A stretch of DNA of 64,000 nt from Sphaerodactylus townsendi. Taxonomy: Eukaryota. Positions 5,818 through 55,359 of this stretch are shown here, in pieces; position 1 is the stretch's first letter; each line of letters begins with the position of its first letter. The DNA is taken from assembly GCF_021028975.2 (NCBI RefSeq), contig NC_059429.1, positions 5,084,001 through 5,148,000 on the forward strand. The letters run 5' to 3'. Under the pieces are notes generated by a model that was not told the origin of the DNA, did not search any database, and saw only the letters and a list, made by a program, of their open reading frames with translations. A program made the translations under genes and the position numbers.

Positions 5818-5975
5818 CCGTGGTGGCGAACCTTTGGCACTCCAGATGTTATGGACTACAATTCCCCACATCGAAACTCCGCCGCCAGCATGCTTTGGCC
5901 AATTGGCCATGCTGGCAGGGGCTGATGGGAATTGTAGTCCATGACATCTGGAGTGCCAAAGGTTCGCCACCACTG
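5818..5975. mobile_element. palindromic hAT MITE (family A)
   Basis: TIRs c(c/a)gtggtggcgaacc / ggttcgccaccactg; 8-bp TSD ttatatgg (5810-5817, 5976-5983). Confidence 0.85.
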
Positions 5976-6403: not shown

Positions 6404-6492
6404 CAGGGGTAGGGAACCTGCGGCTCTCCAGATGTTCAGGAACTACAATTCCCATCAGCCTCTGTCAGCATGGCCAATTGGCCCTACCCCTG
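6404..6492. mobile_element. hAT MITE (family B, internally deleted)
   Basis: TIRs caggggtaggg / ccctacccctg; TSD acctagat (6396-6403, 6493-6500). Confidence 0.85.
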
Positions 6493-8124: not shown

Positions 8125-8270
8125 CCGTGGTGGCGAACCTTTGGCACTCCAAATGTTATGGACTACAATTCCCATCAGCCCCTTCCAGCATAGCCAATTG
8201 ACCATGCTGGCAGGGGCTGATGGGAATTGTAGTCCATAACATCTGGAGTGCCAAAGGTTCGCCACCACTG
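8125..8270. mobile_element. palindromic hAT MITE (family A)
   Basis: Near-perfect 146-bp hairpin; TSD acatagac (8117-8124, 8271-8278). Confidence 0.9.
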
Positions 8271-17822: not shown

Positions 17823-18149
17823 CTGAAAAGGTGAAGGAGGAGGAAGAAGGGTTAGAAGGGTCAAAAAAGCTGGAAGACAGGTTCAGGCAGCGGGAGGGGG
17901 AAAATCAGCGAAAAGTTGACCCCAGCAGATAGGCCAGCAGAGTGGGGGTTTCAACCCAGGGTTCTGAACGGAGTCATCTTTCCACTGCAAGCACTCTGCA
18001 CGCTGCTCAAGGATACTCATTCTACGGCTCTGGTGGTAGAAAACCCTTCTTCACTCCTCTCAACCCCTCTCTCCCTTCTGATGAAGAAACACAGAGCGCT
18101 GCTCCTGGTTCTCACAAGTCCCAGAAAACCCGGTTCAAATCCCCATCGC

Positions 18150-19100
18150 CCATCTCCCCAGGTGGCCGCCGGCCACCACGCCCTCTCCGACTCCTCCCCT
18201 CCCTCCCTCCCCAGCCACCCCCTCCCGGGCGCGCCCCCGCGTCTCACCGGTGTGGGCGTAGGAGACGGGCACGCGCCAGAGGGAGACGTGGGCGCTGACG
18301 GAGGCGAGGTACTTGCCGAAGGCGAGCGGGAGGATGAGGCGCGGGTAGGCGCGGGGGGGCAGCTGGGCGGGGCCGGCGGCGGGGACGCGCCAGGCGCGCA
18401 GCAGGGGGGGCAGCAGCGCCACCAGGCCCAGGACGTGGCACAGCGAGACGGTCACGGGCCGCGGGAACTCGCCCAGCAGCACCTTGTTCACCACGTTCCC
18501 GCCCGCGCTGAGCGCGTACCACGCCAGGCACAGCGCCGGCACGCGCAGCGGGACCACGCCGCGCGCCCCCGCCGGGGCTGCGGGCGAGGGTGGCGGGGAA
18601 GGCGGCGCAGCCGGAGGGGACGAAGGAAGCCCCGGCGACGCCATCTCCACCGGCGCCGCGGCTGCTGCTGCGCGCGCCTCCCTCGCCGGCGGCCGCGCGC
18701 CCCGCTGCGTCACTTCCGCCCGCCGACAGGAAACAGACGTCCGGCCGGGGCTGCGGGAGGAGGCCGCTCTGGCTTCACGCAGCGATAGAGAGGAAACGGG
18801 TCACGGGGAGGCCCTGCGGCGAAGGGCTCATCAGTGCGCATGCCCAGAGGAGGCCGAGCCAGGGAGCGCGGCGGGTCCTCCTCGGCGGGCCAAGAAGACC
18901 CCCGAGGCCGCCTTTCCCCGCTAAGCGCGCCTCTCCTCCTCCCGTCTGCCCAGGAAGGCCGGGGACCGCGGGGCAGACACGGAGGGGAAGGGTTGGGCAA
19001 CCGGGCAACAGCCGGAAGGAGCTCCGTCCTCCAGAATTCAGTTCCTCTGGGGCTTCCGGGGTGGGGTGGGGGAGTAGTTTTCGCCCCCACGGCAACCCCT
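18150..19100. promoter_or_regulatory. CpG island / SLC35E1 promoter
   Basis: GC/CpG-rich; ETS/half-CRE composite cgtcacttccg near 18708-18718; NRF1-like tgcgcatgc near 18835. Confidence 0.7.
18248..18644 (-). CDS. SLC35E1: SLC35E1 exon 1 (solute carrier 35E1, nucleotide-sugar/triose-phosphate transporter family)
   Basis: ATG at 18644 (MASPG...); [18 protein letters not shown]...[23 protein letters not shown]; GTGAG donor at 18247. Confidence 0.92.
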
Positions 19101-24625: not shown

Positions 24626-26311
24626 TCAGTCTAGGCAGACATAAGGCAGGATGTTGAGGTGCCCGTCATCCCCGTGTGGGTCTAGCGATATGCACTGCGT
24701 CCAATCATACCAGTTACCCTGTGTATCATAGCAACCATTCACACCCGGCCAGTGGTGGTCAGATATTCTGTTGAGGTCCTCCCTTGTGACCTCTCGTGTC
24801 ACCCCAGGCAAGTTTGTGGGTTTGCTGCTGACAGGAACCAGAACATGGGTCTTTCTGGCTTCCCTCCTAGTGCTTTCCTCTTGCTTTAAATATTGAGACA
24901 TGAAGTAGGGGGCCCCTGGAGTTTGCACTCCCGAAGAGGACAGCAAGGTACTCTGCCTATCCAAGTAGGACTGAATGATTTCATTCCTGGACAATTCTTT
25001 CCAATTAGTTTGTTCGAAGGGGCTCTGCAGCAGGGGCGGGGCTTGCTCCTGCCTGTCAGAGTCTGTCCTGTGCGGCTGGGCAAGAGTGAGGTCCGCCTGC
25101 AGAGAGTCCCTCTGTGCCAAAGGTTTGATCTCGCCCGTCTTGGGGTCGAAGGTGAGCCGCCTCTCCTTTTTTAACCGGACGGGCTTCACACCTGCTTCTA
25201 GCGCCTGCCCATCCAAGTTGACCACGTAGTCTTTAGGCCGGTATTTTTTCTTCTTCCTGCTGTCGGACCCCGATGCAGTGCTGTCGCTGTCCATCTTTGA
25301 GGTGTCTGGCGAGAGGTCAGCCAAGGACTCAGCAAGGTGCAGGCTGCTCCCATCGCCAGGGGATAGTCCTGTGGCAAGCCAGTGTTGGCTCTCGGGGGCT
25401 GTCTGCTGCTCCTGGGAATGCAGAGGCGGCTCTGGGCCCACCGGCTGAGCTGCCTCCAGCCTCTTGGCCAGCGTTGGCGGCGTTGGCGGGTGTGTCAGAG
25501 AAAGAGGTGGTGATAAGGGCACTGCCACTGCAGCATCCAAGAGGGGAGGCCTCAGAGACGAAGGCGGCACAGAGCCCTTCGGAGAGCATGTGGCGTGCTG
25601 ACGAGCCAGAGTTTCCAGCCTGACGTGCCTGGGACAGAACGAAGAGCGGCAGGGGCTCCGCAGCTGGCTAGCAGCCTCCTCCACTCTCTCCTGCTGCTGC
25701 TGTTGCTGCATCACTGCTGTCTTGAGCAACAAGGAAGTTCCAGAAGATTTGAAGAGCCCTGGAGAGCTCGTGTGGGGCCTGACCGCATTCACTGGAATCT
25801 TACTGAGCTTGTCATTTTCACCCAGCTCTGCTCGACTACCTTCTGGCCCAGGCAGGGTGGTCACTTCTGGAGGGCTGGGGAAACTCTCAGGGCTCCCTCC
25901 AATCCCATTGGTGGGGGGCGGGGAAGAGTTCTGTAATACTTCATAGATGGCTTTTGAAACTTTTGACGGAGGAGCACCTTGGGGGTCATCGTGGGGTTCA
26001 CCTCTCCGCTTCCGGTTGCCTGGCTTCTCTGATTTCGGAGAGTTCAGCTTCTGGACATCATTCCTGTTCTTCACATCGTGAATGGGCTTGGATCCTACCA
26101 CAGCCACAGGGGGGATTTCCATGCGGCAGTTGTGAGCTCCACCATTTGCTGATCCAGGTGGATTTGATAACCCCCTTGAGACAGTCTCATTTTGTGTTAC
26201 AGGCTCGATCAGCTTCTGCCAATTTCGGAGCAGTTTTTTTGCACGTTTAGCCAACTCCTCGTTCTTGGTTTTCTTCCGCACGTCATTAATCAACTTGCCC
26301 AGTCTCGTTTC
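24626..26311 (-). CDS. MED26: MED26 exon 3 (Mediator subunit 26; end of the TFIIS-N-like domain to C-terminal NILPYVCLD*)
   Basis: TAG acceptor 26314-26312 then ETRLGKLINDVRKKTKNEELAKRAKKLLR; C-terminal WPGVNGCYDTQGNWYDWTQCISLDPHGDDG; about 611 aa in total. Confidence 0.97.
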   Translation of the reverse strand, partial: ETRLGKLINDVRKKTKNEELAKRAKKLLRNWQKLIEPVTQNETVSRGLSNPPGSANGGAHNCRMEIPPVAVVGSKPIHDVKNRNDVQKLNSPKSEKPGNRKRRGEPHDDPQGAPPSKVSKAIYEVLQNSSPPPTNGIGGSPESFPSPPEVTTLPGPEGSRAELGENDKLSKIPVNAVRPHTSSPGLFKSSGTSLLLKTAVMQQQQQQERVEEAASQLRSPCRSSFCPRHVRLETLARQHATCSPKGSVPPSSLRPPLLDAAVAVPLSPPLSLTHPPTPPTLAKRLEAAQPVGPEPPLHSQEQQTAPESQHWLATGLSPGDGSSLHLAESLADLSPDTSKMDSDSTASGSDSRKKKKYRPKDYVVNLDGQALEAGVKPVRLKKERRLTFDPKTGEIKPLAQRDSLQADLTLAQPHRTDSDRQEQAPPLLQSPFEQTNWKELSRNEIIQSYLDRQSTLLSSSGVQTPGAPYFMSQYLKQEESTRREARKTHVLVPVSSKPTNLPGVTREVTREDLNRISDHHWPGVNGCYDTQGNWYDWTQCISLDPHGDDGHLNILPYVCLD

Positions 26312-27326: not shown

Positions 27327-27401
27327 CTCAAGAACCTCTTTGGTAATGGGATATTTCTCCAAGCTGGAGATCACTTCCAGTACCACCACCATGTTATGTA
27401 T
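27327..27401 (-). CDS. MED26: MED26 exon 2 (IHNMVVVLEVISSLEKYPITKEVLE)
   Basis: 75 nt, CAG acceptor, GTATG donor. Confidence 0.94.
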
Positions 27402-27886
27402 CTGCTAAAAAAAGGGAAAGAATAGAGAATATAACCATCACTTGAGAAAAAACAAGGGGTCCTCTGAAGCTGGAGGACTCTCTACTGCAGCCATTCTCAA
27501 CCATGTCCCAGGGGTACCGTGGCAACACTACCGCCCCCCCCCTCATTTTTGTGGTGTCTCCCACCAGCGCCAGCAAGGACATGGAGCTGGCCCATGGGGC
27601 AGGGCCAGCCACAAGGTCAGCAGCTACCCCCCCCCCCCAGTGCTACCCTTCACCCTGGGAGGGGAAGGTGGGGTGTGTGGCAAGCAGGGGCAATGGGAGG
27701 GAAGGTGGAGGGAGGCGGCAGGGGTACCGGGAGATATGAAGAGTGAGGTCAAGGGTACCCTGACCTCGAAAAGGTTGGGAAACACTGCTGTACTGTAACA
27801 TGCTATAAAAGCTGAGCTGCAACAATCTGGCTCAAGTACAAATGTTGCGAAGACAGCCCCAATGCAGACCCCACATTCATTCAAAC

Positions 27887-29326
27887 CAGAGGTGGGACCC
27901 AGCAGGTTCTCACCAGTTCCCGAGAGTGGGTTACTAATTATTTGTGTGTGCCGAGAGGGAGTTACTAATTGGGTCCGCTTTTCCGTCTCCACGCCCTCGC
28001 CTCCCCCTCTCTTCTTCTTTCTCGTAGCCCGGAGCTTGCCGGGCTAGTAAGAGGAGGGACCCTTTAACTACTGTTGGGTCCAGGGGACTCTTTACTTGCT
28101 TGGTAGGCTATTTATTTTGGCACTCTTGTCTGTTCATTTTATGATATAAATTGTGATTTACCATGATGCTTGGCCACTTAAAAGCTGTATTCCTGTATGT
28201 GAGAATGTTATGCTAATCTGTGTCTCTAATCCTGGATTAATTGATGTGAAATATCTGCAGAATATACAGTATGGATTGCGAATTCTAGTTCACAATGGAT
28301 GATGTTCTGGTTTATTTTTTTACTTTAAACAGAAGAAGAAGAGTGGATTTATATCCCCCCTTTCTCTCCTGCAGGAGACTCAAAGGGGCTTACAATCTCC
28401 TTGCCCTTCCCCCTTCACAACAAACATCCTGTGCGGTGGGTGGGGCTGAAAACTGTGACTAGCCAAAGGTCACCCAGGAATAAAAAGAGAGTGTTAATGA
28501 CTGATTTTAAGTATTTATGGGGTTAAAGGATTACAAAGCATTTTGTATAAGTGAAAGGTGAAAGGTACTAACTACTAATGCTTACTCAATTTTTTAAAAA
28601 GTCATGACCTGTGTATCCTGGCAGTAGCCTTGATATCTAGCTCTTGAATATGCCTATGCAGTAGGAATGGGTCCATTGGATCCACGCTTTAATGAATTTG
28701 TGGTCTTAATCTAAAGTGCAAATTATCTTTGGAGTATTGAAATGTATTAGGCCCCTTCCAAGGAATATAGTTAACAAACAGTGGTGGATTTTAGTGAATC
28801 TCTCACTAAACTGTAGTGACCCACTGCATGATTCTTACAGTTGGTATACAAGTCCTGTTGTTTCCTATGTATCCGGTTAGCGAAGGTAGAAAACGGGATA
28901 ATTCTCCCAGTTGGGCTGTTTTAAAAACATGTTTTAGAAATATGGTAAAGTTCCTTGTTTAAGGAAAGTATCCTTCTTTTGATTTCTAGAAACAAAATTA
29001 AGTATTTGAAAGTATTAAGTATTTGACAGGCAGTCAGTTAGAGGAGAAGTAGTTGTTTCTGTTGGCTGTAGGCGATAGGACTTGCTATAATGAGTTTAAA
29101 TTACGGACAGAAAGATACCAGCTGGAAATTAGGAACTTTTTTTTTTACAGTAAGAGTTTTTTACAATAACTGAGAAATTATTAATGCCCCGCCCCTGGAA
29201 TGCCTGGCCACGCGCCTCGTCAGGTGCCCTTCGGCACTTCCAGCCCCATTGCCATTGGCGCTACGCCACTGTTTGAATCCCACCACCATGGGAACCTGTT
29301 GCTAAAATTTTTGGATCCCACCACTG
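27887..29326 (-). mobile_element. family E hAT-like element with internal cargo, including a partial SINE at ~28330-28477
   Basis: Termini cagaggtggga / tcccaccactg; 8-bp TSD attcaaac (27879-27886, 29327-29334). Confidence 0.8.
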
Positions 29327-30286
29327 ATTCAAACTCAGAAGCTGGACAACGGTCCCTTCAAAAAGAGAGCTTAGGGCAGAGACTGCCTGTTAGCGTAGGC
29401 CTCTCACTGTGACGGCAACATCTACTGTTGCAACTCAACTCCACTGCGTTCATTATGAAGTGTGCCACCAACATCATAACAGCTGGGGAACATAAAGAGA
29501 CCAAAAGTAAGTGCCCTGGTATGCATAGCAATGGGACACACAATATATTATCGGGTAGTCCAAGACATCCATTGGGTGAAATCACAAAAACCATGCTGAA
29601 GAAGTAATTGGGAAAAGAGGATGTGATGCACATGGCAAACAGCTATAGAATTCAGCAATTCTTTAATGTCATCCTGAAAACTTGATAGAACAAATGCAAT
29701 GGCACACAGACAGACAGTTCTAAAGCATCACACTGTGCTCTGGGCCCACACAAAGAGCCTCATGAAGCAACACTCCTCTTCCATCAAAACAACATTACAA
29801 ATCAAGGACACATACATGGCTTCTGTAGGAGAACAAATGCAACAGAAAGCACTTATTTAAGGCAAGATGTAAACAAGCCAGACCCTTGGCCAAGAGACGC
29901 TAAACTGTTTGGTGCTTCAGAGGTATGCTTGGTTCCAAAGCATGATGCAGTTTCCAAATAATAAGTTCCAGGTAAGAGCATGCACGCACACACGCACATG
30001 CACACACACAGAGGAAGGCTACTCCACACGACCTTTCCTGATTTCCATCTGCATCAAGGTCCTCCCATGATCCTTTATTTACCTCCCTAAAGATGACCCG
30101 AAGCAGATTACAAGATTGTTCTTAATTTATAATTAGAATCACCATCCATGTGAAACAGGCTGACAGAAATTATCCCAAGATAAATTATCCCAGTACAGTT
30201 CCACAACAGAGTGGCAATCTACACCCTGTGTCTCTTGGATCCTAGTGTGGCACTTTAACCACTATACCACGCAAACTATTCCATTA

Positions 30287-33011
30287 CTTTAAACATAAAA
30301 AGACACAAACTGGTTGGTCTGGCCAAAGTGTGAAAGCAATTATTTCACAAGGAAAATACTAATAGATTTAAGGTAGAGGGGACATCAATGATGGAACAAA
30401 CTGCCCAACCCTGAGTTACTCTATGGCAGTGGTGGCGAACCTATTGGCACTCCAGATGTTCATGGAATTGGGATTCCATGGGAATTGTAGTCCATGAACA
30501 TCTGGAGAGCCGCAGGTTCCCTACCCCTGCCTTAAACATAAAAAGACACAAACTGGTTGGTCTGGCCAAGTAGAAAGCAATTATTTCACAAGAAAAATAC
30601 TAATAGATTTCCATGCAGAGGGGACATCAATGATGGAAACAAATCGCCCAACCCTGAGTTAGCTCTCTATGCAGTGGTGTATGCAACCCATTGGCACCTC
30701 CATAGATGTTCATGGAACAGACCCATGGGAATTGTAGTCCATGAACATCTGGAGAGCCGCAGGTTCCCTACCCCTGCCTTAAACATAAAAAGACACAAAC
30801 TGGTTGGTCTGGCCAAAGTGTGAAAGCAATTATTTCACAAGGAAAATACTAATAGATTTAAGGTAGAGGGGACATCAATGATGGAACAAACTGCCCAACC
30901 CTGAGTTACTCTATGGCAGTGGTGGCGAACCTATTGGCACTCCAGATGTTCATGGAATTGGGATTCCATGGGAATTGTAGTCCATGAACACCTGGAGAGC
31001 CGCAGGTTCCCTGCAATTCCTGCCTTAAAACATAAAAGACACAAACTGCTTGGTCTGGCCAAAGTGTGTGCTAAATTATTTCACAAGGAAAATACTCAAT
31101 AGATTTAAGGTAGAGTACATCAATGATGGAAACAAACTGCCCAACCCTGAGCATTTCTATGGAGTAAGTGGTAGAGACCCATTGGCACTCCAGATGTTCA
31201 TGGAATTGGGATCTCCATGGAATTGTAGTCCATGAACACCTGGAGAGCCATGCAGGTTCTCTACCCCTGCCTTGCAGAACATAAAAAAAGACACAAAACT
31301 GGCTTGGTCTGGCCAAAGTGTGAAAGCAATTATTTCCACAAGGAAAATACTAATAGATTTTAAGGTAGAGGGGACATCAATGATGGAAACAAAACTGCCC
31401 AACTCCTGAGTTACTAATAATTTTATGAGAAAGTGGTGGCGAACCTATTGGCACTCCAGGTGTTCATGGAATTGGGATTCCATGGGAATTAGAACTATGA
31501 ACAATCTGAGAGCCAGAGAGGTTCCTACCCTGCCTTAAACATAAAAAAGACAAACTGGTTGGTCTGGCCAAAGTGTGAAAGCAATTATTTCAGCTGCTGA
31601 AAAATACTAATAGATTTAAGGTAGAGGGGACATCAATGATGGAACAAACTGCCCAACCCTGAGTTACTCTATGGCAGTGGTGGCGAACCTATTGGCACTC
31701 CAGATGTTCATGGAATTGGGATTCCATGGGAATTGTAGTCCATGAACACCTGGAGTGCCATAGGTTCCCTACCCCTGCCTTAAACATAAAAAGACACAAA
31801 CTGGTTGGTCTGGCCAAAGTGTGAAAGCAATTATTTCACAAGGAAAATACTAATAGATTTAAGGTAGAGGGGACATCAATGATGGAACAAACTGCCTGTA
31901 ACCCCTGAGTTATTTATGAGAAAAGCAGGATAATCTCCATTGGCACTCCAGATGTTCATGGAATTGGGATTCCATGGGAATTGTAGTCCATGAACACCTG
32001 GAGAGCCGCAGGTTCCCTACCCCTGCCTTAAACATAAAAAGACACAAACTGGTTGGTCTGGCCAAAGTGTGAAAGCAATTATTTCACAAGGAAAATACTA
32101 ATAGATTTAAGGTAGAGGGGACATCAATGATGGAACAAACTGCCCAACCCTGAGTTACTCTATGGCAGTGGTGGCGAACCTATTGGCACTCCAGATGTTC
32201 ATGGAATTGGGATTCCATGGGAATTGTAGTCCATGAACACCTGGAGAGCCGCAGGTTCCCTACCCCTGCCTTAAACATAAAAAGACACAAACTGGTTGGT
32301 CTGGCCAAAGTGTGAAAGCAATTATTTCACAAGGAAAATACTAATAGATTTAAGGTAGAGGGGACATCAATGATGGAACAAACTGCCCAACCCTGAGTTA
32401 CTTCCATGGCAGGAAATATAACCTATTGTTAATCTAGATGTTCCATGGAATTGGGATCATGGGAATTGTAGTCCATGAACACCTGAGTGCCAGTAGGTTC
32501 CTACCCCTGCCTTAAAATATAAAAAAAAGACAATAAAACTGGTTGGTTCAAGCAAAGTGTGTGGAAAGCAATTATTCTACAAGGAAAATACTTCAATAGA
32601 TTTAAGGTAGAGGGGACACTCAATGATGGGAACAAACTGCCCAACCCTGAGTTATTTATGAGTAGTGGTGTATAACCTAACTCCAGATGTTCATGGAATT
32701 GGGATTCCATGGGAATTGTAGTCCATGAACACCTGGAGTGCCATAGGTTCCCTACCCCTGCCTTAAACATAAAAAGACACAAACTGGTTGGTCTGGCCAA
32801 AGTGTGAAAGCAATTATTTCACAAGGAAAATACTAATAGATTTAAGGTAGAGGGGACATCAATGATGGAACAAACTGCCCAACCCTGAGTTACTCTATGG
32901 CAGTGGTGGCGAACCTATTGGCACTCCAGGTGTTCATGGAATTGGGATTCCATGGGAATTGTAGTCCATGAACACCTGGAGTGCCATAGGTTCGCCACCA
33001 CTGCTCTATGG
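30287..33011. repeat. tandem array, 11 x ~243 bp, each unit a ~140-bp spacer plus a chimeric hAT MITE
   Basis: Period 243 (30291 to 30534; 32030 to 32273); located in MED26 intron 1. Confidence 0.92.
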
Positions 33012-34261
33012 TTAAGGAAACCTAACACACACCGGCATCAGATCTTATGGGCAAAGAATGAGGCAGTGAAGAAAGTCAGACAAGATCAAAGATCAAAAGT
33101 CAAAACAAGCCAGTTGCCTGGAAGACCATTTGCATCTGCAAGGAAGCCACAGATCTTACCTCAAACCAGCAGGACACAAAAATCTTACACAAAAACAACA
33201 GCTAAACAGTTGGATGGATTTAACTTTGCTGAAAGGCTGTAGTAAAGCCCTAGAAAAAGGGCCAAATGTGCAGAATATTGACAGGATGACAGTGAAGTCA
33301 GTCTCAAATCTTCGTGAGATGAAGATACTGGAAGTAGAGTAGGCATGGGAGAGAAGGTGGAAGAGCTGCACTTGGGCAAACAGAACCCTACATCTACACC
33401 GCAAATACTTATTCCTAGATCAGCAAGGAATCCAAGGCCCCATCCAATTTCTACCCCTCAAGGATCAGCTCACCAGCTCAGTCACAAAAAACACAGCTCT
33501 GCTTAAAGCCTGCTGCACGTCTCTAATATATGTGATGCGTTCTGAACAAGAGAAATGTGTCATGTATATATGTACTAATAACCACCTCCTAGAGTGGTCA
33601 GGGCTGCACCATGCCAGCATGACTTGAAGATGGCTCATTCTACCTGCGAAGAAAGATCTGGAGAAGCAGCTGTAGCCACAACCCTACTCGTTACGATGAA
33701 GTGGCCACTCCCACCATTGCAGAGAATAGTGCAAAATTATAGGAGCTGCATTTCTCCAGCCCAGCTTTAATCATTTAGTCACCCAGCTGTTATTAATCAG
33801 CTCTGGACTTTTGTGGTGCCACTTGTTTATGGCAACAAGAGAGGGCCAAGATGAAGCCCATTACAGGGGTCACATGTACCTAAACTGCTTACTGCTCACA
33901 AAAGACCCCACAAACGGAAGATCATACAGTGAACTTCCAGAAGGGCCTGTTGCTTGGAACCAGGTCAACCAAAGATGGTCCTCTATTTTTCTAATCTGCA
34001 TCTCCTCATTAGTTCTTGTTGCCTCAGTTCTCTTCAACATGGGAACTGTACTGTGTATTAAGCCTAAATTACATGCTATTCTCTTTAACCACTACCTACC
34101 CAAGGTTCTGGATTTCCTAAACTACGCAAAGCAACCAAGTCCAAAGGGGGAGGGGGTAGGATATTAAATCAAATAAATAATAACCACCGCCACCTCCTCT
34201 GGTCTTGGTTTATACAGGGCATCAACTGCAGTCTGTGCCCTGCTGATGAATGTGCTAGTCA

Positions 34262-34775
34262 CTGAACATCAGAAGAGCCTTGCTGAGTCACACCAATGGT
34301 CCATCTATTCCAGCACCCTGTTTTATACAGTGGTCATCTATGTGTGCTGGAAGGCCAATAACAGGACACAGAAGTTGAGGCTTTCTCTGATGTAACTTCC
34401 TAGCATTGGTAGAGTCCAAGCAAGGAAGAGATCTGCTTCTTAATGGGAGGGGGGGGGGTCCCTTTAGTCATTAATAAATCTCTCCCCTGTAAATTTGGCT
34501 AATCCATCTATTCTTGTTGCCATCACTACATGCACTAGCAGTAAACTTCACATCACTACATGCACTAGCAGTAAACCTCACAATGCAATGACTCATTATG
34601 CAAATAAGTACTGTTGTCAATTCTGAATGTATTCTGAATCCAGTGCCCCTGAATATTAATATTATATGTGAGAAAGTGTTCTCTCTATCCACTGTTATCA
34701 CTTCATGCATAATTTAAACTTCTACTCAGTTCTCCTTTATATTTTTTTTCCTAAACTGTAAAGCCCCCAGACATC
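34262..34775 (-). mobile_element. old, diverged CR1 3' fragment
   Basis: Diverged counterpart of 11835-12360 (gaacatcagaagagcc..ggtccatcta.tccagca; atgcataattt; ctaaact..aaagcccc). Confidence 0.55.
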
Positions 34776-34783
34776 ATCCAGAG

Positions 34784-34969
34784 CAGTGGTTCTCAACCTG
34801 TGAGTCGGGACCCCTTTGGGGGTTGAACGACCCTTTCACAGGGGTCGCCTAAGACTCTCTGCATCAGTGTTCTCCATCTGTAAAATAGATAAATGTTAGG
34901 GTTGGGGGTCACCACAACATGAGGAACTGTATTAAAGGGTCGCGGCATTAGGAAGGTTGAGAACCACTG
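34784..34969 (+). mobile_element. SPIN (Space Invader, hAT) MITE
   Basis: cagtggttctcaacctgtg..gacccctttgggggt.gaacgaccctttcacaggggtcgcctaagac...ggggtcaccacaacatgaggaactgtattaaagggtcgcggcattaggaaggttgagaaccactg; TSD atccagag (34776-34783, 34970-34977). Confidence 0.85.
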
Positions 34970-35192
34970 ATCCAGAGCTTATAATATTTGAAAGTGCTCA
35001 GATTCAATACATTAGACAAAAATAGGATTGCAGCTCAGAAGCATATGTGCTTCTGGGGCAAACAGAAGTAGGCTCCTTTAAGCCAGAAGAGCTTTCCCAA
35101 CACAGCCCAATCCCAAAAGGAGGTCAATACCCGCATCTTGGACCAGCAATTCACAAACTGGGGGGGGGGGAGCGCAAATGACTTCAGTATGT

Positions 35193-35314
35193 ATTGTCGA
35201 AGGCTTTCACAGCCGGATTCAACTGGTACTGGTGGGTTTTCCAGGCTGTGTGGCCGTGGTCACAAGATCCACCAGACCACGGCCACACAGCCCAGAAAAG
35301 CCACCAGAACCAGT
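35193..35314. mobile_element. short Penelope-derived palindrome lacking the ribozyme cores
   Basis: Same arms as 10011-10293; direct flanks tgacttcagtatgt (35179-35192, 35315-35328). Confidence 0.7.
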
Positions 35315-36049
35315 TGACTTCAGTATGTTTGTCACACCTGTGAAAAAGGCAAAAGTACAGCACATGAAGTCATGAGGGGCAGCACCTCGCTGTGGACAAA
35401 AAGTATGGGAGAGGCAGCAAGTTTTGAAAGGAGATGATGGCAAATTCCGTGACAGAGTGGTTTAGACCCTACAACAGAAGGTCCCAAAGATCTAACAGGC
35501 CTGTGCAAGTTCAGGGCAGGACTCCCCCACACCAAGACAATCGGGAAAAGGTTTCAGGACATGAGATATACACTCAATGCAAGAAACTAACAGAACAGAG
35601 GGAGAAGCAGCACAGCATTACGAGGTAGAGAATCCTGGAGACAAAAAGGCAACTGGCCCCAAAACTACAGCAGCCTGGATCCATTTGCGTGCCAGGCAGG
35701 AGCAAGCCTTTTACCAGCAGCAGCAGAGCTGCTTTCCTAGTCCCTGTCCTGGGTGGTACCAACCCCAAAACATGATGGGGGGGGGCCAACCAAGGAGAAA
35801 ACCTGTGAGGGTACTTGGAAGAGAGAGAGATGAGACACAGAGAGCAATTGTGGAGGGAACAAGGAGTCAGAGAAGGGAAGCCCCCCCTGGGGCAGGTGCC
35901 AAGCAATTGGAAAGGGGGCGACCCCCCCTCCCCCAGGTACAACAAGGCAAGGGGCAGGGGAGTGTCCTTTGACCTTCGGGATGGAGCTGTCCCTGCTCTT
36001 CCTATGGAGGGGGAGCCAAATAAGGTAACCTGGAAGGCCTTCCCCTCGC

Positions 36050-36960
36050 CCAACGCAGCCTGGCCTACGGGGTGGGACGGAGGTGCCCTCTCTCCCGACG
36101 CCCGCCCGCCGTCCACCCGGTCCCCGCACTCACGTTGCTGCGGGGGTCGATGGCCTGCAGCAGCCGGTCCCTGATCTGCTGCGGGGAGGGTCCCGGAGCC
36201 GCTGTCATTGCCCCCCTGGGGAGGAGGCGATGGGGAGGGGGGAGCCGAGGCAGGCGGGCGGGGAGAGGCGGCGGAGACGCCCCCCTCTTCCTGCCGGCCC
36301 CTCTCCCTCCCCGGCCGGCCTCTCCTCGCGGCCTCACTCGCCGGCCTCGCCGCGGGGCAGCCGGCCTCGCCGCATGTTCCGCCCGCGCCCCGGGGCAGGT
36401 GGGCAGTCGCCGCGGAGGGGGGCCCGGGGTCGGCCTGGCCCGGGGGCTGCTCGGCTGAGGAGGAGGAGGAGGCCGAGCTCAACTGTGGGCAGGAGCCAGC
36501 CCGCGCGGTGCACCATGGGACACGCCTGACGGCGGCGGCGCAGGCACGCCGCACGGCGTCTCTGTGGCGTCACGGCGCACCAGCTGCGGGCCGACGCGCA
36601 ACAGCCCCCCCCCCTCCCCCGCTCGCCTCTCCCCTCGGGGAACCAGCTGCTCCTCCGCGCCTGCGCAAAGGGTCCCCCTCGCTCCTTGAGGGATGGAGCG
36701 GGGGGAGGGGGAAAACAGAAGAGGAAAAAGGCGGGAAAAGGAGCCCCGCGCCCCGGGAGGGGGTGGCGCCATCATGGCCGGCGCTTTTTCTCCTCAGGAG
36801 GCGAGTAGTAGGCCGCGCGAAAATGAGTCAGCATTAAAAGAAGAAGAAAAGAAAAGTCTTCGCTGAAAATGAGCCGATTGTCTCCAATTGTTTCGAATTG
36901 TGAATTAAGTCCACCGGGTTTTACTATTTCGTTTGTTGGAGCGAAGGACTCCGCAGCAAC
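36050..36960. promoter_or_regulatory. CpG island / MED26 promoter and 5'UTR
   Basis: GC/CpG-rich region around exon 1. Confidence 0.75.
36134..36208 (-). CDS. MED26: MED26 exon 1 (MTAAPGPSPQQIRDRLLQAIDPRSN)
   Basis: ATG at 36208, GTGAG donor; matches human MTAAPASPQQIRDRLLQAIDPQSN. Confidence 0.95.
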
Positions 36961-39429: not shown

Positions 39430-42400
39430 TTAAAAAAATTAATATTATTTATTGTATAATCACATAATTACAAAAATCATCACAAACACACACGTACATA
39501 CATACAACAATCGTAATTTTACAATTGTTGAAAAATTAATTAAAACATTTCAGGTTTAACTGCAACATTTTTGAAAAGGTAAGAGACTGAAGTAGTTTCT
39601 GTCGATTTTCTTAACCTCTCTACGTTACTTCTATCTTTTCTTCTACTATTAAACTATTTTTCCTTATACACTTATATTGATAAAAAAAGTCCTCAATCCA
39701 TCAAAAAAAATTCCTGGTTGCTGCAAATCCTTTATACTATTTTTGCTAGTACTTTTAAAGAGTAAGAATTTGTGTTTCCTCATTGATATATATTCTCTTT
39801 CCCTTCTTAAAAAAATAGCTATCCTATTATTGTTTTATTGAAAAAAAACATTACCATTGGCTCTATGGGAAAGGATATCAATATTAATTCTTATTTATTT
39901 ATTTCTAATATATCAGGCTGTTTCTATCCCTTATCATATTCATATCTATTCAAGGAAATCCAACTATTTCATTATATTTAATTTTTTTCCCACTTTCAGA
40001 TTTTTAAATAAGGTTTCCATGTTTCTTCAAATTTCTCTGGTTTATCCTTCAACCTCCAGGTTAGTTTGTCCAATTACATCATTTCCTATAGTTTTTCTTC
40101 CCAATTCACCATCGTAGGGACTTCTTTCTTCTTCCATAGCTTGGCTATCACTAATCTAGCCGCAGTTGTCATGTAAAGAAATAAATTTTCATATTTTCAT
40201 CTTTTTTCATCTTTGATCAACAAAAAGAGTTCTGGCTTAATTTTGATCTTAGTTTTTAGTATTTTCCCCATTGCTTTAGCTATCTTCTCCCAATTTTTTT
40301 ATTTTATTACATTTCCACCACACGTGGATTAGCGTTCCCTTCTTTTTCCTACATTTCCAACAAATTCCCTCTGTCTGATTATTCATTTTTGATAAACATT
40401 CTGGTGTGTAATACCACCTATTAAATATTTTTATGAAATTCTCCTTCAAATTCATTGAAAGAGTAAATTTATTATTTCTTCTCCAAATATTTTCCCATTC
40501 CTCGAGAGAGATATTTCTTCCTATATCTCTGGCCCATTTAATCATTGTATCCTTCACCACTTCTTGTTCAGTTTTCAATTTCAGTAGGAATTTGTAAAAT
40601 CTTTTAATTATTTTTTTGTTACCTTTGCCAATAATGTCATCAAATTCATTTGGATTTTTTTGAAACCCATAGTTTTCCAAATCTTTTTTGTAAGTCTCTG
40701 TTAATTGTTGGTAAGAGAACCAATGGCAATATGTGTCTTTATTTAGAATTTCTTCTCTGGTTCTTAATTGGACTTTATTATTTTCCCACTTCAATGTTTC
40801 TTTGTAAGTGGGCCAGTTCCCTTCTGTATGGTGTTCCTTTATTTGGAGTGATTCTGCTCTTGAGACCCAATTTGGCGTTCAATTATATATAATATTTTTG
40901 TATTTTAACCAGTTATTCATCAAAGTTTTCCTAATTGTATGGTTTGTGAAATTTTTGGTATTTTTTCCTTTTTGAGTGGGCCATAAGAATCTATGCCATC
41001 CCTCTGATAGGTCATAACCTTCAAGATTTAGTATTTTTTATTTTTTAGTACTATCCAGTCCATTAACCACACCAGTAGATTGGTTTCATAGTATGATTGT
41101 ATGTCAGGTAACCTCAAGCCCCTTCTATTTTTTTTATCGATCATGTTCTTGTATTTTATTCTTGGCTTCTTGCCATTCCAAACGAAGTTTACTAGTAGCT
41201 TTTTCCATTTATTTATTGTTTTAACAGTTAATGAGACAGGTACATTCTGGAAAAGATACATTAACTTTGGAATGATATTACTTTTTATTATAGCTATTCT
41301 GCCTAGAAATGATATTTGTAGCTTTTTCCATTTTTCTATTTCTTTTCCTATCTCATTCCAGATTTTTTGGTAGTTATTTTCAAATAGAAATTTGTTATTA
41401 TTTTTGAGTGTTACTCCGAGGTATTTTACCTGTTTTTCTATTTTATAACCTGAATTTTCCTGTAAAGTTAGTCTCTCTTTCGATGTTAAATTTTTAGTTA
41501 GGATTTTTGTTTTCATCTTATTTATTTTAAATCCTGATACTCTACCGAATTTGTCCAATTTTTGTTTTATTCCCTTTATATTTTCTATTGGATCTTTTAT
41601 GAACAATACTATGTCATCCGCAAATGCTTTGTACTTGTAGCTGTATTTCTTAACTCTTATTCCCTCCCATGTATTGTCTTGGCTTATTTTTTCCCCCAGT
41701 ATTTCTAGCTGTAAAATGAATAACAGGGGTGAAAGAGGACATCCCTGTCTGGTTCCTTTATTAATTCTAAACTTTTGCAACTGGTTTCCATTTATTATTA
41801 ATGAGGCAAATTGGTTCTTATATATTGTTTTTATCTAAATAATTCTCTATTTTTTGTTCTGACTTTCCTTCTTCTTTATAGAGTCTATGAAGAAAATTTC
41901 AATTTTCTTTCGATCGGTTATTATTTCTGCTCCTTTTTTTACTTTCGTTATTTTTCTTGAATTCCTTTCTTTTCTTAATCTGGCCGATAGCCATTTTCCT
42001 GGCCTATTTGCCCATTCAGACTCTTTCTGTTTTATGAACTTCAACTGTTTCTCTATCTCTATTTGATTTTTTCTATCTAGTTTTTGTTTTGTTTCAAAGA
42101 TTTTTCTCTTAGTTATTCTATTGGATGGTTTTCTAATTAGCCTTTTCTCAAGGTCTTTCAGTTCTTTAGTTAACTGTATTTCTTCTTTGTTTTTTTTTCT
42201 TAAATCTTGTCTCTTGTTCTAAGAAAATACCCCTTGTGAATGCCTCACTTGCATCCCATATGGTTCTAAAATCCCCTATTGAACTATTGTTTAATTGGAA
42301 GAATTATTTTAATTTTTCTTCATTTCCCCCCACTATTTCCTTATTTTGCAACATCCAGTTCTTAATTACATAGTTTCTTACTTTTTTCTCCTTTATCATT

Positions 42401-44988
42401 ACATTCCAACTAATTGGGTTATGATCCGATATTGATCGTGGCAAAAATTTTATTTTGGTTGTTGACGATAGAAGTAGGCTTGAGGCCCAAACTATATCAA
42501 TTCTGGTGTGGCTATGGTGTCTGTTTGAGTAAAATGTATAGTCCTTTCCAGTTTTTCTTTCTCCCTCCAGATATCTTTTATTTTTAAGTTTTCCACCAAC
42601 TCGAAGAATGACTTTGGTAGTGTGTTTCCATTTGTACCTGTTTTTCCTTTTCTATCTAACCTGTTATTAACTATACCATTGAAATCCCCCATTATGACTA
42701 TCTTATCATACATATATTGTGTTAAAGTATCTGCCAATTCTTTGAAAAAATTTGATTTTCTTTCATTGGGTGCATATATTCCCATTAGAAGAATTTTAAC
42801 TTCATTCAGCATTATCTCCACCCCCACATATCTTCCTCTATTGTCTTGAACAATCAATTTAGGTCTTAAATCTTCCTTAATATATATTGCCACTCCTTTT
42901 TTTTCTCAGCCAATGACACAAATAGCTGACCTAATTCTCTACATTCTAAGTATTTCCGGTCTTTTTCCCTTATGTGTGTTTCTTGTACACAAACCAGATC
43001 TTGTCCTAAGTGTTTTAAATAGTTGAAAACCTTTTTTCTTTTGTTGGGGCTGTTCATACCATTAACATTAATTGACAAAAATTTGTATGACATTTCAATT
43101 AGTAATAATTTAGTTTAACGAAGTGATCAAACTTATACAAAGGTTATTTAAGGGTTCGACGGAGATATATATAAGTAAAGAAATAAAGAAAGATAGCTAG
43201 AAAGAGAGAGGAAAAAGTTGAGAGATTTTTCAGTCAATAAGGAGAAAGGTAGTTAGAAGAGAAGGTATAGAAAAGAGAGAGAAGAAATAAGAGAGAGCAT
43301 GGATCTTCAAATCTCTTAATTCATATTTAACTTAGTAATTTGTAACTTAAATTTTTAACATAATTGTCTCTTTTCACATTCAGCACTTTCCTTCAAAAAT
43401 TCTTGCGCTTGCATGACTGATCTTATCAAAATTTTCTTCTCGTTTAATGTAAAGCTTACCCCTTCTACAGGTTCCCATCTGAAAATTATTTTGTTTTCTT
43501 TCAGCCAGTTAATTAAAGGAGCATAGTCTTTCCTTTTCCTTAATATATGTAGCGGCGTTTCTTTGAGTACTCTGACTTCTTGACCTCTTATTGTCACTCT
43601 GGTTTTTGAATGTTTCATTAAAATCTCATCATGTGTTTTTTCCCTTGCAAATGTTACTACAATGTCTCTAGGAACGTTTCTGTCTTTTGCAAATCTGGTA
43701 TTTGCTCTGTAGATTCTGTCAATTTCACGCTCCATTAATTTTTCTTCCATTCTTAAGAACTCTGCTAAAGCAGTGGTCATCTTTTCCCTTAAATCTTCTT
43801 TATTTTCTTCTTTACATCCTCTAAATCTTAGAGTGTCTTCTTTCTGTCTAAGTTCTTGTAACGCCATCTGATCCATCATCATTTCCATCTGGTTTGTAAA
43901 AATTTCGACTTTACTGTCTGTGACTGTCACGTTATTCTTTATGTTGATGACTTCGTTCCTTATTTCTTTTATTGATTCCTCCATCTTCTTTACTTGACTC
44001 ATCTTTCTTAAGTTCTTGAATCTCTTTTTCAAATGTTCCAAATCTACAGTCCAGTTTATTCAGTCTTTCCTTTGTTTCTTCCTGAAGCATTATAGATCTT
44101 CCTATCATTTGCTCCAGCTTGTCATAGTTTTCAGATCCACTCTTATCTGGGGTTTTGTTGTTCCCTCCATTTTTGGCTCTTGTTGCCATCTCTTCTTGTA
44201 TTTCTGCTGGCTTCTTTTCTCCAACACGTTCTCTAGAGAAATTTCTCCCGAACCATTTTTTTTACCACTCTGGATCGTTAAAACTCTATGGTTCCATTGA
44301 ACTCATTGTTTTCAATCCGGAGAATTCTCCCTCCTCCCCTTCCGGGTCACTTTCAATTGGGTTTAGTTCAACCTCCTCGGGGTTAATCCTCTCTTCTCTG
44401 AACCCTCTCTAGGTTCTTAGTGATTTAATAATTTCTTTTTAAGTCCCAATATGAGTTTAAAAAGTATCACTCACTTCACTGGAGCGTCGTTGCTTCTCCA
44501 CTCGCCGTTTACGGAGCTCCGCCTGGTCACGTCTCCTTTCTTTTCTTTCCCGGTTTTTCACAGCTGCAGTTTTGCTTTCTCCTGCTTCTCCTTCAGCTGC
44601 TCGCCTTCCCCGGGTTGTCCGTAAGTTCAATCAGTCGTAATTTATTTTATATTTAGACTAGCAATGGTATGTTCCTTTCCAGTTTCACCCCTCTGCATGA
44701 GGGGGTTTTCAGCTTTGCACAGCCAATTCCTTAGCTCTCTCCAGTCCCTTAAGAAATGGTGCTTCTCCTTGTTCTCGCATCCCTTCAAAAGCTCCAAGTG
44801 CTTTTTTCCTGGGATTCCAGCCACAAGGATTTGCAGCGGATTTGCAACCTCGTTCCTCCCCCCTTTTTCTAGCGACGGGGGAGATTTTGGGGTTTGCTAT
44901 TTCCCCAAAAAGCTTAAATATCTCAGGGGACTGGACCGCACCTCTGTTTTGTGCGGCTGGTCATCTCCAAGCCCAACCGGAAGTCCTC
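39430..44988 (-). mobile_element. L1-clade LINE with both ends, internally deleted and frameshifted; inserted into a CR1 tail
   Basis: 16-bp TSD ctttcaggagtgcttt (39414-39429, 44989-45004); 5' end GAGGACTTCCGGTT; ORF1 (43355-44189); APE endonuclease (SINVNG, CVQETH, MGDFNG; 42492-43093); RT (GTRQGCPLSPLLF, FADD; 41028-41780); Cys/His motif CWKC...H.WW.C. Confidence 0.93.
43355..44189 (-). pseudogene. L1 ORF1 (coiled coil plus RRM/CTD-like region), one frameshift near 44000
   Basis: LRFRGCKEE...IDRIYR...PRDIVVTF...RKRKDY pattern typical of L1 ORF1p. Confidence 0.8.
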
Positions 44989-45079: not shown

Positions 45080-48000
45080 TCAAAAGGATTGGCCCGATGA
45101 GGAAGCGGAATGGGTTCAGTTGGTGAATCTGGGTGCTTCACACCCAGGCTCATTTCCCCATGGAGTGTTCAGGGAGGATGAACCAGTGGAAATACTTGAT
45201 CCTCCTTCATGCAAGGAGGATGAGCCGGGATGGCCGGGACTCCAAGAAGACCCAGGTCTACATTCCCTACACGCGCAACAGGCTGCGCTGGACCGAGCTA
45301 AGCATGAATGGCAGGAGGCCCGGGAAGCCTTGATTGACAAACATGTTCGTCAGTGGCTTCAACTCAGGGAAGACTATGACAAGGAACATGAAGAGTTATA
45401 TCAACAGCTGCAAAAGAATCGAGAACAACAGGGACGCGAAGTTTTGCAACTATGAGCTTTGAAATTACAACAATTCCAGGACGCTGCTGCCTACAGCGCT
45501 GAACTTGTTCAAATCCAGCGTGAACGTGCAGCCCTGGAGAAGGAAAGGTCCAAACTGCTGCGGAAGAAATGTGATTTGGTGGTCATCAAGGCCCATGAAC
45601 GCGCTGCAGTGGCAGACCTACAACGGCAGCTAACTGCTCAAGCGGCAGAGTTGCGTTTGGAACGCCAACGTGTTGCAGCAAGCCAGACCCACGGACAGCC
45701 AGATACATCTCACCCATGTTCAGTGGACAATAGATCTGCCCGACCACCGCCAAGATGCCACTTTCAGCCCGCTACAGCCCAACACGCAGCACCCCTTCCT
45801 CCTGGACCTCAGGGTCGTGGTTTCACCCGCCCGCATATTCTGGCTTGTTTCGATGGTACTGCGTCCAAACTACCGTATTTCATCTTACAGCTGGATGCCC
45901 ATATGCAGGAATACGATGACATGTATCGTTCCGAAAGGGAGAAGGTTTGTGACATCGGATCGGTTTTGGATGGGGAAGCGGCAGAGTGGTTTGTGGAACT
46001 TTTTGAACTTGATGCTGAGGAACTTAATTCGGTAGCCGACTTCTTGCAAGGCTGACGCTTGCAGTTCGAAGGATCGAGATGCCTGTGATAACGCTAAAAG
46101 GACACTTAAAACAATGTGGCAAGCCATTCGCGGAGTTTGCTCGTCGATTCTGTGCAGTTGCCAGCAAAATTCCTGACTGGCCAGACCAGATGAAAGCTGA
46201 ATACTTCTATGAGGCTGTTGATCCAGAAATCCAGAGTTGGGCTGTTATGAACAACGAGCCTCGTACAGTGGCAGAATGGATTGAAATTGGCAGCATCATT
46301 GTGGGCAGACTCAACTGTTTCAAAGAATCGGGGACCAAAACCCAGCCGGCCAAACGCCCTGTGCCTCAGGTGAAGAAAGCTCCTGCCTCAGTTGCCATCC
46401 CACCTGCCACTGCTGAAAGTGTCTCGGAGCGACGTTGTCATTTAGGACACTGTCTGTATTGTGGCAAACCTGGTCATGTAGCTGCGACCTGCCCAAAGAA
46501 AACCAAAACTGCAGGCGGCTTGCCTCCAAAAAGATCTACAGCTAAGCCAGCATGGCGATCAGCACCTCCTAAGTCGGCTCAGGGCACATCAAAAGCCTTG
46601 GATGCAGAGGAACTTGATTTCCTCGAGGAAGATGAAACCACCACCAACATCGGACTCTCTACAGCAGTTCCTGAAACTACGGAGTCTCCTAAAGATGCGG
46701 TGAGTGATGGTGGTGCCCCTATTACCCTAACGACTACATTGTCTAATCTGGCCAAGCATACTCGTATTTTGGCTCAGGCGCTTGTGGACTCCGGGTGTTC
46801 CCATTGCCTTATGCGACCGCAAATAGCGGAGGAACTTGGATTACAATTAATTCCACTGGCCAAACCCTGACCGTTTACACAAATGAACGGTAGCCCTTTA
46901 GGGGGAAGTGGTCCAGCTCATTTTAAAACTGAACCCATCCTGTTGTAATGTGAGGAGCATTGGGAGCGCCGTAATTTCATTTTGGCCCCAGTGGCTAAAT
47001 ACCCGATCGTTCTGGGAATGTCCTGGTTAGAGACACATGATCCCACTATCCAATGGATATCTCACATAGTTCGTTTTACTGATCCACCCTGTGGGGATCA
47101 CATACATGAAGGTGATCCACCTGAACCAAGCACCCCTGCATTGGCTTCTGGCGTTTCCTTGCCACCTGAACTGCCCGAATGCCTAAGCATCACTGGGACC
47201 TTGCCAGAGTTTTTGAAGAGCGGGAATGCGACCAGCTACCCCCCCACAGGGACACGGATTGTAAGATTGAGTTGATCCCGGGAGCCAAATACTGAAGGGC
47301 CGTGTATATCGGATGAGTCCCACCGAGGAGACTGAGTTAAGGGTGTTTCTGGACAAGAATCTGGCTCGTAGTTTCATTCGGAAGGCAACTAGGAAGGCAA
47401 CTAGAAAAAGGATGGCTCTTTGAGATTGTGCACTGCCTATAGAGGTTTGAATGCAGCGTCAGCCTCCAATAAATACCTGTTACCCTTGATCAAAGACCTT
47501 TTAGATGCTTTGGGGTCGGGGCAGTTTTTTACCAAGTTGGACTTGAGAGAGGCTTACTATAGAGTATGCATCGCAGAAGGTTATGAGTATCTCACAGCCT
47601 TCAACACTTAGTTTGGACAGTATGAATATCTCATAATGCCATTTGGATTACACAGTGCACCCGGGGCTTTCATGTCCTTGATCAACGAGGTTTTGCAAGA
47701 TTTATTGTTTAAAGGAGTGGTGGTGTACTTAGATAATGTCCTGATTTATTCCCGCACCGAGAAGCATGTAGCTCTGGTTCGCACAGTGCTGCAGAGGCTT
47801 CTTGACAACTCTTTATTTGTGACTGCCCAAATGTGCCTACCATCAGGAAAAGTTGGATTTTCTTGGATATCGTGTGTCGGGGGGATTGGAAATGGACCCT
47901 GCTAAGGTGGCAGCAGTAGTAAATTGGTCCATCCCTACCACCCGCCCAGAAGCTCAATGTCGTTTCTGGGATTTGCTAACTTCTATTGTGACTTTATTCC

Positions 48001-48585
48001 GCTTGAATTCGCCCAAATAGCCTTGCCTTTAACCGATTTTTTTCGTTACAAAGGGGCAAGGGGACTTACTAACAACTAAGCGAGATTGCCCCTCTTAATT
48101 GGACTGACGGTTGCCAGTAGGCTTTTCAACAACTTAAGACTGCCTTTACGACTGAGCCTATTTTAACCCATCCCAATCCTGACTTGCCGTTTATAGTACA
48201 TGTTGATGCGTCTGACAAAGCTTTAGGGGCAGCCCTCTTACAACGGGGTGCGGATGGAAAACTGTCTCCTTGCACCTCTCTTTCGAAGAAGTTTTCTGGT
48301 CCTGAGCTCAATTGGACAGTAGGTGATAAGGAAACTGCAGCCATTAAAGAAGCTCTCAGCACTTGGCGCCATTGGTTAGAGGGTGCTGCCCGCCCTTTCC
48401 AAGTTTGGTCGGATCACAAAAACCTGTCAGCTCTGTCCACCCCCAGTAAAATGTCGGCTAAGCAATTGTGGTGGGCTGATTTCTTTTCCCTGTTCCAGTT
48501 TACAGTGCATTTTTTCCCTGGGAAAACCAACCAATTAGCGGACACGCTCTCACACCTTCCTCAGGGGGTGGATACCTCCTTACGT
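45080..48585 (+). mobile_element. decayed Ty3/Gypsy (sushi-like) retrotransposon internal region: gag-PR-RT-RNaseH; no LTRs or integrase seen
   Basis: Gag FDG...LDGEAAEWF; CCHC knuckle CLYCGKPGHVAATC; protease ALVDSG; [13 protein letters not shown] / MPFGL / VVVYLDNVLIYS; RNase H VDASDKALGAALLQ...DKE...WRHWLEG...SDHKNL; many stops and frameshifts. Confidence 0.92.
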
Positions 48586-48922
48586 GGAGGTCGGCAGAAA
48601 CACAGGGCTGTGGGTGGCGGAAGCTCAGACAGGTGGGGGCCCAGGAGGATGCGGTGGTTTTAGCACAGCAGTCCAATGTCGCTCCTTGCCCCTGGGTGGG
48701 AGGCAGTGGCCAAATGTGTGCCCCCCCCTCGACACATTCAAGTGGTACCTGGGACATCAGCCCCCTCTGTGCCCCCTTCCTGGTATGCCATTGATGAGGA
48801 CCAACCTGCTTCCCTTCTGATGAGACTGGGTTAGTTTGGGCTACCCAGATCAGGCCCTATAGTCATAGGCACTTACATACATTCATAATCAACAAACTGT
48901 GTGTATGTCTGAAGTGTCATCA

Positions 48923-49546: not shown

Positions 49547-49681
49547 CATAGGTGTCAAACTTGTGGCCCTCCAGATGTCATGGACTACAGTTCCCATAAT
49601 CCTCTGCCAGCATGATGCCGACAGGGGATGATGGGAACTGTAGTCCACAACATCTAGAGGGCCACGAGTTTGACACCTGTG
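49547..49681. mobile_element. palindromic hAT MITE
   Basis: TIRs ca.aggtgtcaaact / agtttgacacctgtg; TSD ctgtaagc. Confidence 0.85.
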
Positions 49682-55221: not shown

Positions 55222-55359
55222 CAGGGGTCTTCAAACTATGCCCCCCCAGATGTTCATGAACTACAATTCCCATCAGCCCTGCCATTTGGCCATGCTGGCT
55301 GGGGCTGATGGGAATTGTAGTCCATGAACATCTGGAGGGCCATAGTTTGAAGACCCCTG
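55222..55359. mobile_element. palindromic hAT MITE
   Basis: TIRs caggggtcttcaaac / gtttgaagacccctg; TSD atctaaaa. Confidence 0.88.

Follow-up and report, generated by a model that had tools for sequence, protein, structure and literature searches.

A tandem array of chimeric hAT MITE hairpins in intron 1 of MED26 of Sphaerodactylus townsendi and its probable origin from two neighbouring insertions

How a tandem repeat whose unit joins host DNA to the halves of two transposable elements comes into being is the question raised by a locus in intron 1 of MED26 of Sphaerodactylus townsendi. Tandem repeats with long units seldom preserve a readable record of how they started; at this locus one can make out the junction that founded the array, the points of later exchange and, in a near-identical relative, a likely one-unit ancestral allele, and models of arrays seeded by transposable elements can be tested on it. 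The array lies in a stretch of 64,000 nucleotides (NCBI RefSeq assembly GCF_021028975.2, contig NC_059429.1, positions 5,084,001 to 5,148,000 of the forward strand), called the window below, and all coordinates are those of the window. The features needed for the argument are as follows.

30289..33011, no strand: tandem array, with 11 assembled units each about 243 bp long (TRF, blastn and alignment)
30289, 30532, 30779, 31026, 31275, 31535, 31780, 32028, 32271, 32515, 32763: unit starts in the assembly
30287..30294, + strand: empty hAT-type target site CTTTAAAC before unit 1, without a B element and without an excision footprint
30295..30418, + strand: host spacer of unit 1, 124 bp, present in all units (blastn and alignment)
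30419..30426, + strand: left TSD of MITE A in unit 1, CTCTATGG
30427..30529, + strand: hybrid hairpin of unit 1, with A left arm, locus-specific short centre and B right arm (T-B type)
30530..30537, + strand: junction 8-mer CCTTAAAC after the B end, 1 base off the empty site
31675..31777, + strand: hybrid of unit 6, of the latest-switching type: A as far as the last 6-bp shared block, B end beyond it
32166..32268, + strand: hybrid of unit 8 with the middle switch (C-B type)
32901..33003, + strand: intact MITE A closing the array, 103 bp, a near-perfect hairpin with TSD CTCTATGG on both sides
6404..6492, + strand: separate subfamily-B copy, internally deleted, TSD ACCTAGAT, used as the B reference

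The TRF tool reported 11.0 copies with a period of 243 at 30289-33004 (score 3932), in head-to-tail order. Each unit runs from the 8-bp site through the 124-bp spacer and CTCTATGG to a 103-bp hairpin, and the whole locus has the layout flank-target-(spacer-A/B-target)n-spacer-A-flank. The spacer gave no second match elsewhere within the window in blastn, and a 28-base pattern taken from it gave 0 matches in metagenome_contigs in an exact search. In the ten internal hairpins, the left arm and the centre are the same as in the terminal A and the end is B-like; their flanks are unequal and form no TSD, since CTCTATGG (the TSD of A) stands on the left and CCTTAAAC (the upstream target with one change) on the right, the latter being identical in the 6 of 10 junctions inspected. 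Unit 11 is the only one that has an A right end plus matching TSDs, at 32893-32900 and 33004-33011. This agrees with the original prediction, in which the unit had been read as site, spacer, left TSD and hairpin, unit 1 as opening at an empty site with no B ahead, the ten internal hairpins as A on the left and B on the right, and the last hairpin alone as having a family-A right end with its TSD at 33004-33011.

The two parents had been proposed as two different MITEs. The A-left/B-right chimera is confirmed, but the parents are relatives: the last 52 bases of unit 1 differ from the arm of the B copy (6404-6455) at 2 of 52 sites and those of unit 11 at 9 of 52, which makes A and B colinear sister subfamilies of one hairpin clan rather than unrelated elements. 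Their right arms are colinear, with 43 of 52 bases alike, and the 103-bp hybrids are colinear with both A and B, so that a full-length, in-register chimera stands at each junction. The clan has 10 further copies in the window outside the array. Matching 8-bp flanks were found for unit 11 and six other window elements, and all seven of these TSD-bearing elements have TA at positions 4-5 (background 5.5%), in line with the target consensus nnnTAnnn of Buster-type hAT elements given in an excerpt of PMC3517528. An 8-bp TSD, this target consensus, a short non-coding TIR hairpin and a high copy number together place the clan among hAT (Buster-type) MITEs; the summed contig depth on the hairpin arm is very high, 317,000-890,000 across the four sequencing runs introduced below. 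In these runs 142, 147, 72 and 114 contigs leave the reference right after 30529, and B ends at other loci precede a GTCTAGAC-like consensus; the B end is a genuine dispersed terminus. Because the empty site fits nTnTAnAn, a pattern found at 0.57% of intron positions, the simplest reading of the junction is a B end on its own target. The clan is also represented by more terminal variants at 55222-55359 and 49551-49677, and a 507-bp element at 58475-58981 with subfamily-A termini and TSD CCATAGAG is a longer relative of MITE A.

For the reality of the array and its copy number, short-read contigs of 4 of the 19 matching runs were compared, i.e., X1 and X2 (two samples of organism A, the best-matching organism, either of which may be the assembly's own source), X4 (organism B) and X5 (organism C). 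The region compared, 29400-30531, comprises only the left flank and unit 1. No RNA run was listed among the matches, which says nothing about expression. In X1 the unit contig has a depth of 218.3 against 38 for the flank (5.74 times), and in X2 136.9 against 22.7 (6.03 times); the unit depth is 6.8-7.7 times that of the other long contigs listed. The flank contigs of X1 and X2 both stop at 30318, 30 bases into the spacer, and a new contig begins at 30289, giving an overlap of 30 bases (30289-30318) such as a second path into the spacer would produce. From the depth left over in the bin 30312-30349, a junction piece of about 199 in X1 and about 105 in X2 was estimated, i.e., 4.6-5.2 times the flank, and the depth predicted for the adjacent bin was close to that observed in X2 (169.4 against 170.0) and somewhat poorer in X1 (290.4 against 309.4). 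The joint from 30531 to 30289 was absent among the contig joints listed, and the junction was inferred from contig ends and depth. The contigs support the array as real in organism A.

The number of units is another matter. Contig depth is not a copy number, and about 6 units per haploid genome is an estimate, which fits an 11+1 genotype, a 6+6 genotype with an overcount in the assembly, or an under-sampled longer array. The 243-bp period and the 11 copies of the original prediction hold for the assembly, but depth gives about 5.7-6.0 per haploid genome, and 11 units are probably one allele or an overcount. Array size accordingly stands at 11 in the assembly, a mean of about 6 in S1 and S2, and no array sign in S3 (organism B), as read from contigs that do not resolve alleles. 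It should be stressed that about 6 copies per haploid genome in total leave no room for large arrays elsewhere. The locus had been described as a nascent satellite, a class of long and abundant arrays; with 2.7 kb in the assembly and this abundance it is a single-locus tandem array and probably a VNTR, and 'satellite' is an overstatement.

Organism B gives a different picture of the same site. One unbroken contig of X4 covers 30238-30454 with 0 differences and a depth of 12.8 (neighbours 6.3-10.5); it contains the empty B site, the spacer and the A left end, shows no array signal, and stops at 30454, before the centre and the right end. The pieces of the locus in organism B are four, with 753 aligned bases and 0 differences from the window (29400-30454), which indicates that organism B is extremely close to organism A despite its different label. 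The X4 allele is likely the predicted ancestral state, with the spacer running into A. The empty site CTTTAAAC is crossed without a break by the flank contigs of X1, X2 and X4, and neither an intact B nor a B left end was seen at the site in these three of the four runs, which cover it; the missing B allele is weak evidence, as contigs drop rare variants. Hence, of the two ancestral alleles that had been predicted, spacer-A with an empty B site and no extra depth is found in organism B and an intact-B allele is not seen in the three runs. X5 covers 12 of the 30 bins and was left out of this reading. A joint in X5 from 30264 to 30421, with 22 letters on its short side and lying between two repeats, is likely a paralogue and was rejected. 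It is also worth mentioning that an X5 piece at 30274-30349 covers the spacer start and appears to stop around 30318-30320 (bin depths 16.1 and 3.22), where the graph of organism A breaks; this end could be a junction or a B allele.

The units of the assembly differ from each other in two ways that have to be kept apart. Units 1, 8, 3, 6 and 11 are near the consensus, and units 2, 4, 5, 7, 9 and 10 have 16-28 edits each against it. The first ten units differ from unit 8 by 77 substitutions and 77 indel events, and 107 of the 126 distinct edits are private to one unit, with a peak at the hairpin start; the 86% identity between units, with mostly private edits in six noisy units, is therefore probably mostly long-read error. 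The array was probably assembled from raw long reads with only partial polishing. Nanopore reads are less accurate across inverted repeats according to the excerpted part of PMC7229812, a paper on longer inverted duplications. The hairpins at 1770-1875, 5818-5975 and 7546-7698 have clustered indels resembling the noisy array units, which suggests long-read patches at hairpins in the assembly. Where noisy long reads were probably used to fill hairpins, both the copy number in an assembly and the apparent divergence of its units may be deceptive. The share of array words found in the runs was 0.64-0.66, against 0.80 expected if all private words were errors, a comparison confounded by other losses and therefore given no weight.

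Several units also have variants in common, and here the differences are informative. The switch from A to B had been said to occur at two points; it does vary among units, but there are three hybrid types, i.e., T-B (units 1, 2 and 5), C-B (units 3, 4, 7 and 8) and A type to the last shared block (units 6, 9 and 10), the calls for the noisy units 4, 5 and 9 being made by eye. The hybrids are more A-like toward the right of the array, and the A-type block is still visible in the noisy unit 9. The X1 unit contig ends at 30500, just ahead of the T/C unit variant. In the left arm of unit 11 (region of 32930 and 32975, also in unit 5) there is a G against A in other units, which pairs with the private right-arm C, a difference that may reflect self-correction of the palindrome or read error.

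The reading that we prefer, with a probability of about 0.62, is that B inserted 140 bp upstream of a resident A, that an exchange in the shared right arm gave the first duplication, and that unequal exchange expanded the array. The ancestral allele would likely have been the spacer running into A with an empty upstream site, as seen in organism B. The next step would have been insertion of B at the CTTTAAAC target, as suggested by the hAT-type 8-mer that directly follows the B end. A on a chromatid lacking B, either the sister or the homologue, would then have exchanged with B on the chromatid carrying it, by a template switch over short homology or by unequal exchange, to produce spacer-A/B-spacer-A, and unequal exchange between the 243-bp units may have raised the copy number. 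Finally, conversion from the terminal or a single-unit A copy could have pushed A rightward into some hybrids and halted at mismatch clusters, leaving three nested switch points. The original prediction of unequal crossover between A and B alleles is partly supported, in the A/B exchange and the spacer-A state. The perfect homology right of the unique centre is at most 23-30 bp, so a template switch fits better than classical crossover, and a segregating B allele is not required, since a B-less sister chromatid just after insertion suffices. Two observations count against a model with two insertions, namely that no intact B was found in X1, X2 or X4 and that the junction 8-mer is off the empty site at 1 of 8 bases. 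Two pairs of clan hairpins in the window, 5818-5975 with 6404-6492 and 7546-7698 with 8125-8270, lie 429 and 427 bp apart and have not recombined; the former is an A beside a B and resembles the inferred progenitor.

The array would likely have formed by a known mechanism, an Alu/Alu-like chimeric duplication followed by expansion from dimer to array. In Alu/Alu rearrangements, as excerpted from PMC6071635 (219 cases), recombination between related copies of different subfamilies likewise takes place over a short identical stretch and results in a full-length chimeric element at the junction; microhomology of <25 bp is typical and template switching was proposed, and the 23-30 bp here is within the range of Alu/Alu junction microhomologies. 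Those cases are deletions of about 800 bp or more. The present locus, by contrast, carries a duplication that expanded to an array, involves hAT MITE hairpins of 103 bp separated by 140 bp and has no proximal element. Of the parents expected in the progenitor allele, the A left end was seen in X4; no B was seen in any of X1, X2 and X4, the coverage of X5 being patchy. The second stage resembles the dimers-to-arrays model of McGurk and Barbash (PMC5932611, in part), where two nearby insertions seed an expandable tandem with the target site kept at the junction, and unequal exchange is the standard second, expansion stage described for Drosophila transposable elements; a hobo tandem reaches 16 copies (PMC12628747, in part). 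The dimers of PMC5932611 are of the same element twice at one site, in contrast to the two subfamilies and two sites seen here and to a unit with 124 bp of host DNA and a chimera. In the 'first steps' model of Wong and Choo, as summarised in the excerpts of PMC6947457 and PMC12628747, unequal exchange between homologous copies of a transposable element similarly duplicates sequence, and in Xenopus Xstir, summarised in the same two excerpts, hybrid elements from two close MITEs were proposed to precede the arrays. Xstir is made of internal MITE sequence and is a genome-wide family, whereas the present array is at one locus and contains a whole chimeric MITE and host spacer. A narrow open-access literature search, which is not proof of absence, found no published account of this element and no lizard or hAT-MITE case.

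The nearest rival, which we consider unlikely, lets the transposase lead, without a stable B allele: either a one-ended B insertion was resolved by homology with A, or an alternative transposition (of a hybrid element or of reversed ends) occurred and the end was later converted to B. In the former version, itself rather doubtful, a hAT transposase would join one end of an incoming B to the target and a strand switch into the A hairpin would resolve the other side, so that an intact B would never have existed here. Its attraction lies in the distribution of the elements: one stands at the distal end and one at every junction, but the proximal breakpoint is a clean target site without any. The same pattern is found in Ac tandem direct duplications of maize, and in the excerpt of PMC3744419 the lack of an element and of a footprint at one breakpoint was argued to speak against NAHR and for alternative transposition. 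The B left end was not seen in 3 of 3 informative runs, which also favours this rival. The maize Ac/Ds duplications by reversed ends share with our locus a hAT end on an 8-bp target at the junction and a second breakpoint without element or footprint; as far as the same excerpt goes, their units measure 8 kb to 5 Mb, against 243 bp here, where in addition the junction element is a subfamily hybrid unlike the terminal copy and no second reversed end or reciprocal deletion is known. Alternative transposition also expects the junction element to be a copy of the resident donor, and the B ends found do not match the resident A. As 10 of 10 junction elements end in B and the terminal element is A, the reversed-ends route, which predicts a junction element of the terminal type, needs an extra ectopic conversion to the very terminus. 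The one-ended version leaves the same sequence as the preferred reading, with nothing specific to it. Were founding coupled to transposition, the genome would hold a class of young VNTRs made of host spacer and chimeric MITE, with surviving one-unit ancestral alleles, and the birth of tandem repeats could be studied directly; any close pair of hairpin MITEs is a substrate, as these are palindromic and occur about once per 6 kb.

A route through a circle is more improbable still. By this route, a B x A exchange on one B-spacer-A chromatid would release a 243-bp circle of spacer and hybrid; rolling-circle replication would then multiply this circle, and homologous reinsertion into a spacer-A allele would add many units at once. 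It would yield exactly the observed order, the empty front site included, and a one-base change is common to all 6 junctions inspected; rolling-circle concatemers have been proposed for tandems of transposable elements (PMC5932611 and PMC12628747, both as excerpted). A single burst, however, predicts one hybrid type, and the three nested types are interspersed, which requires later exchange even under the circle route.

Two further explanations have very little left to recommend them. That the array is an artefact of long-read gap filling over a real locus of 1-2 units might be suspected from the 6 of 11 noisy units, whose mostly private edits peak at the hairpin start, from the noise in other hairpins of the window, from the loss of nanopore accuracy across inverted repeats (PMC7229812, in part) and from a depth that points to about 6 units rather than 11, but it is largely refuted already by the 5.7-6.0-fold flank depth, the second entry into the spacer with its graph break at 30318 and the junction depth of 4.6-5.2 times the flank in both organism-A runs, and by shared variants that recur across several units. 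Hardly more credible is that the A/B hybrid is a dispersed MITE family duplicated here along with its flank, an idea encouraged by a clan rich in terminal variants and by one paralogous contig with a similar centre in all four runs (3 differences, 2 gaps): the 8-mers on either side of the hybrid are not a matched TSD, the terminal copy shares this centre but is pure A, and the summed depth of the hybrid centre is 280, 352, 43 and 178 in the four runs against 317,000-890,000 on the arm (889,521 in the run with 280), which argues that the hybrid form is not a dispersed family.

MED26 is encoded on the minus strand and contains the domains Med26, Med26_M and Med26_C of Pfam. Its parts in the window are the following.

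36134..36208, - strand: coding exon 1
27402..36133, - strand: intron 1, with the array near its middle, at distances of about 2.9 kb (exon 2) and 3.1 kb (exon 1)
27327..27401, - strand: exon 2
24626..26311, - strand: exon 3, with the Med26, Med26_M and Med26_C domains

The assignment of the array to intron 1 is upheld by these coordinates (27402-36133), the Pfam domains lying in exon 3. On the MED26 sense strand the hybrids have predicted folds of -57 to -64 kcal/mol and the pure A of -81.6. Of the 11 hairpins that had been placed in the MED26 pre-mRNA, several predicted hairpins about 3 kb from either exon stand, but the number 11 is probably that of one allele or an overcount. When one clean unit was scanned for simple motifs in the MED26 sense orientation, two weak donor-like and two acceptor-like sites came up, and this crude scan found no poly(A) signal or strong splice signal in the unit. 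A match to the M4 motif ACTAYRNNNCCCR (PMC5006282) is present in 9 of 11 units, but it also turns up 12 times in the rest of the window and was for that reason not read as functional. The array is most likely neutral.

Other features of the window include a short fragment of a multi-copy repeat at 30205-30270, close by the empty site on its left, with a summed depth of about 2,500, which we take to be SINE-like. The first exon of a gene of the triose-phosphate-transporter family, presumably SLC35E1-like, is at 18135-18800 on the minus strand. A 195-bp unit is present in two copies within a repeat-like stretch at 51494-51923. Finally, a LINE-like element occupies 40276-44059 on the minus strand, with a reverse-transcriptase domain in the frame at 41028-41834, and LTR-retrotransposon-like frames in separate pieces, with a weak protease match and RNase H domains, are found at 45456-48663 on the plus strand.
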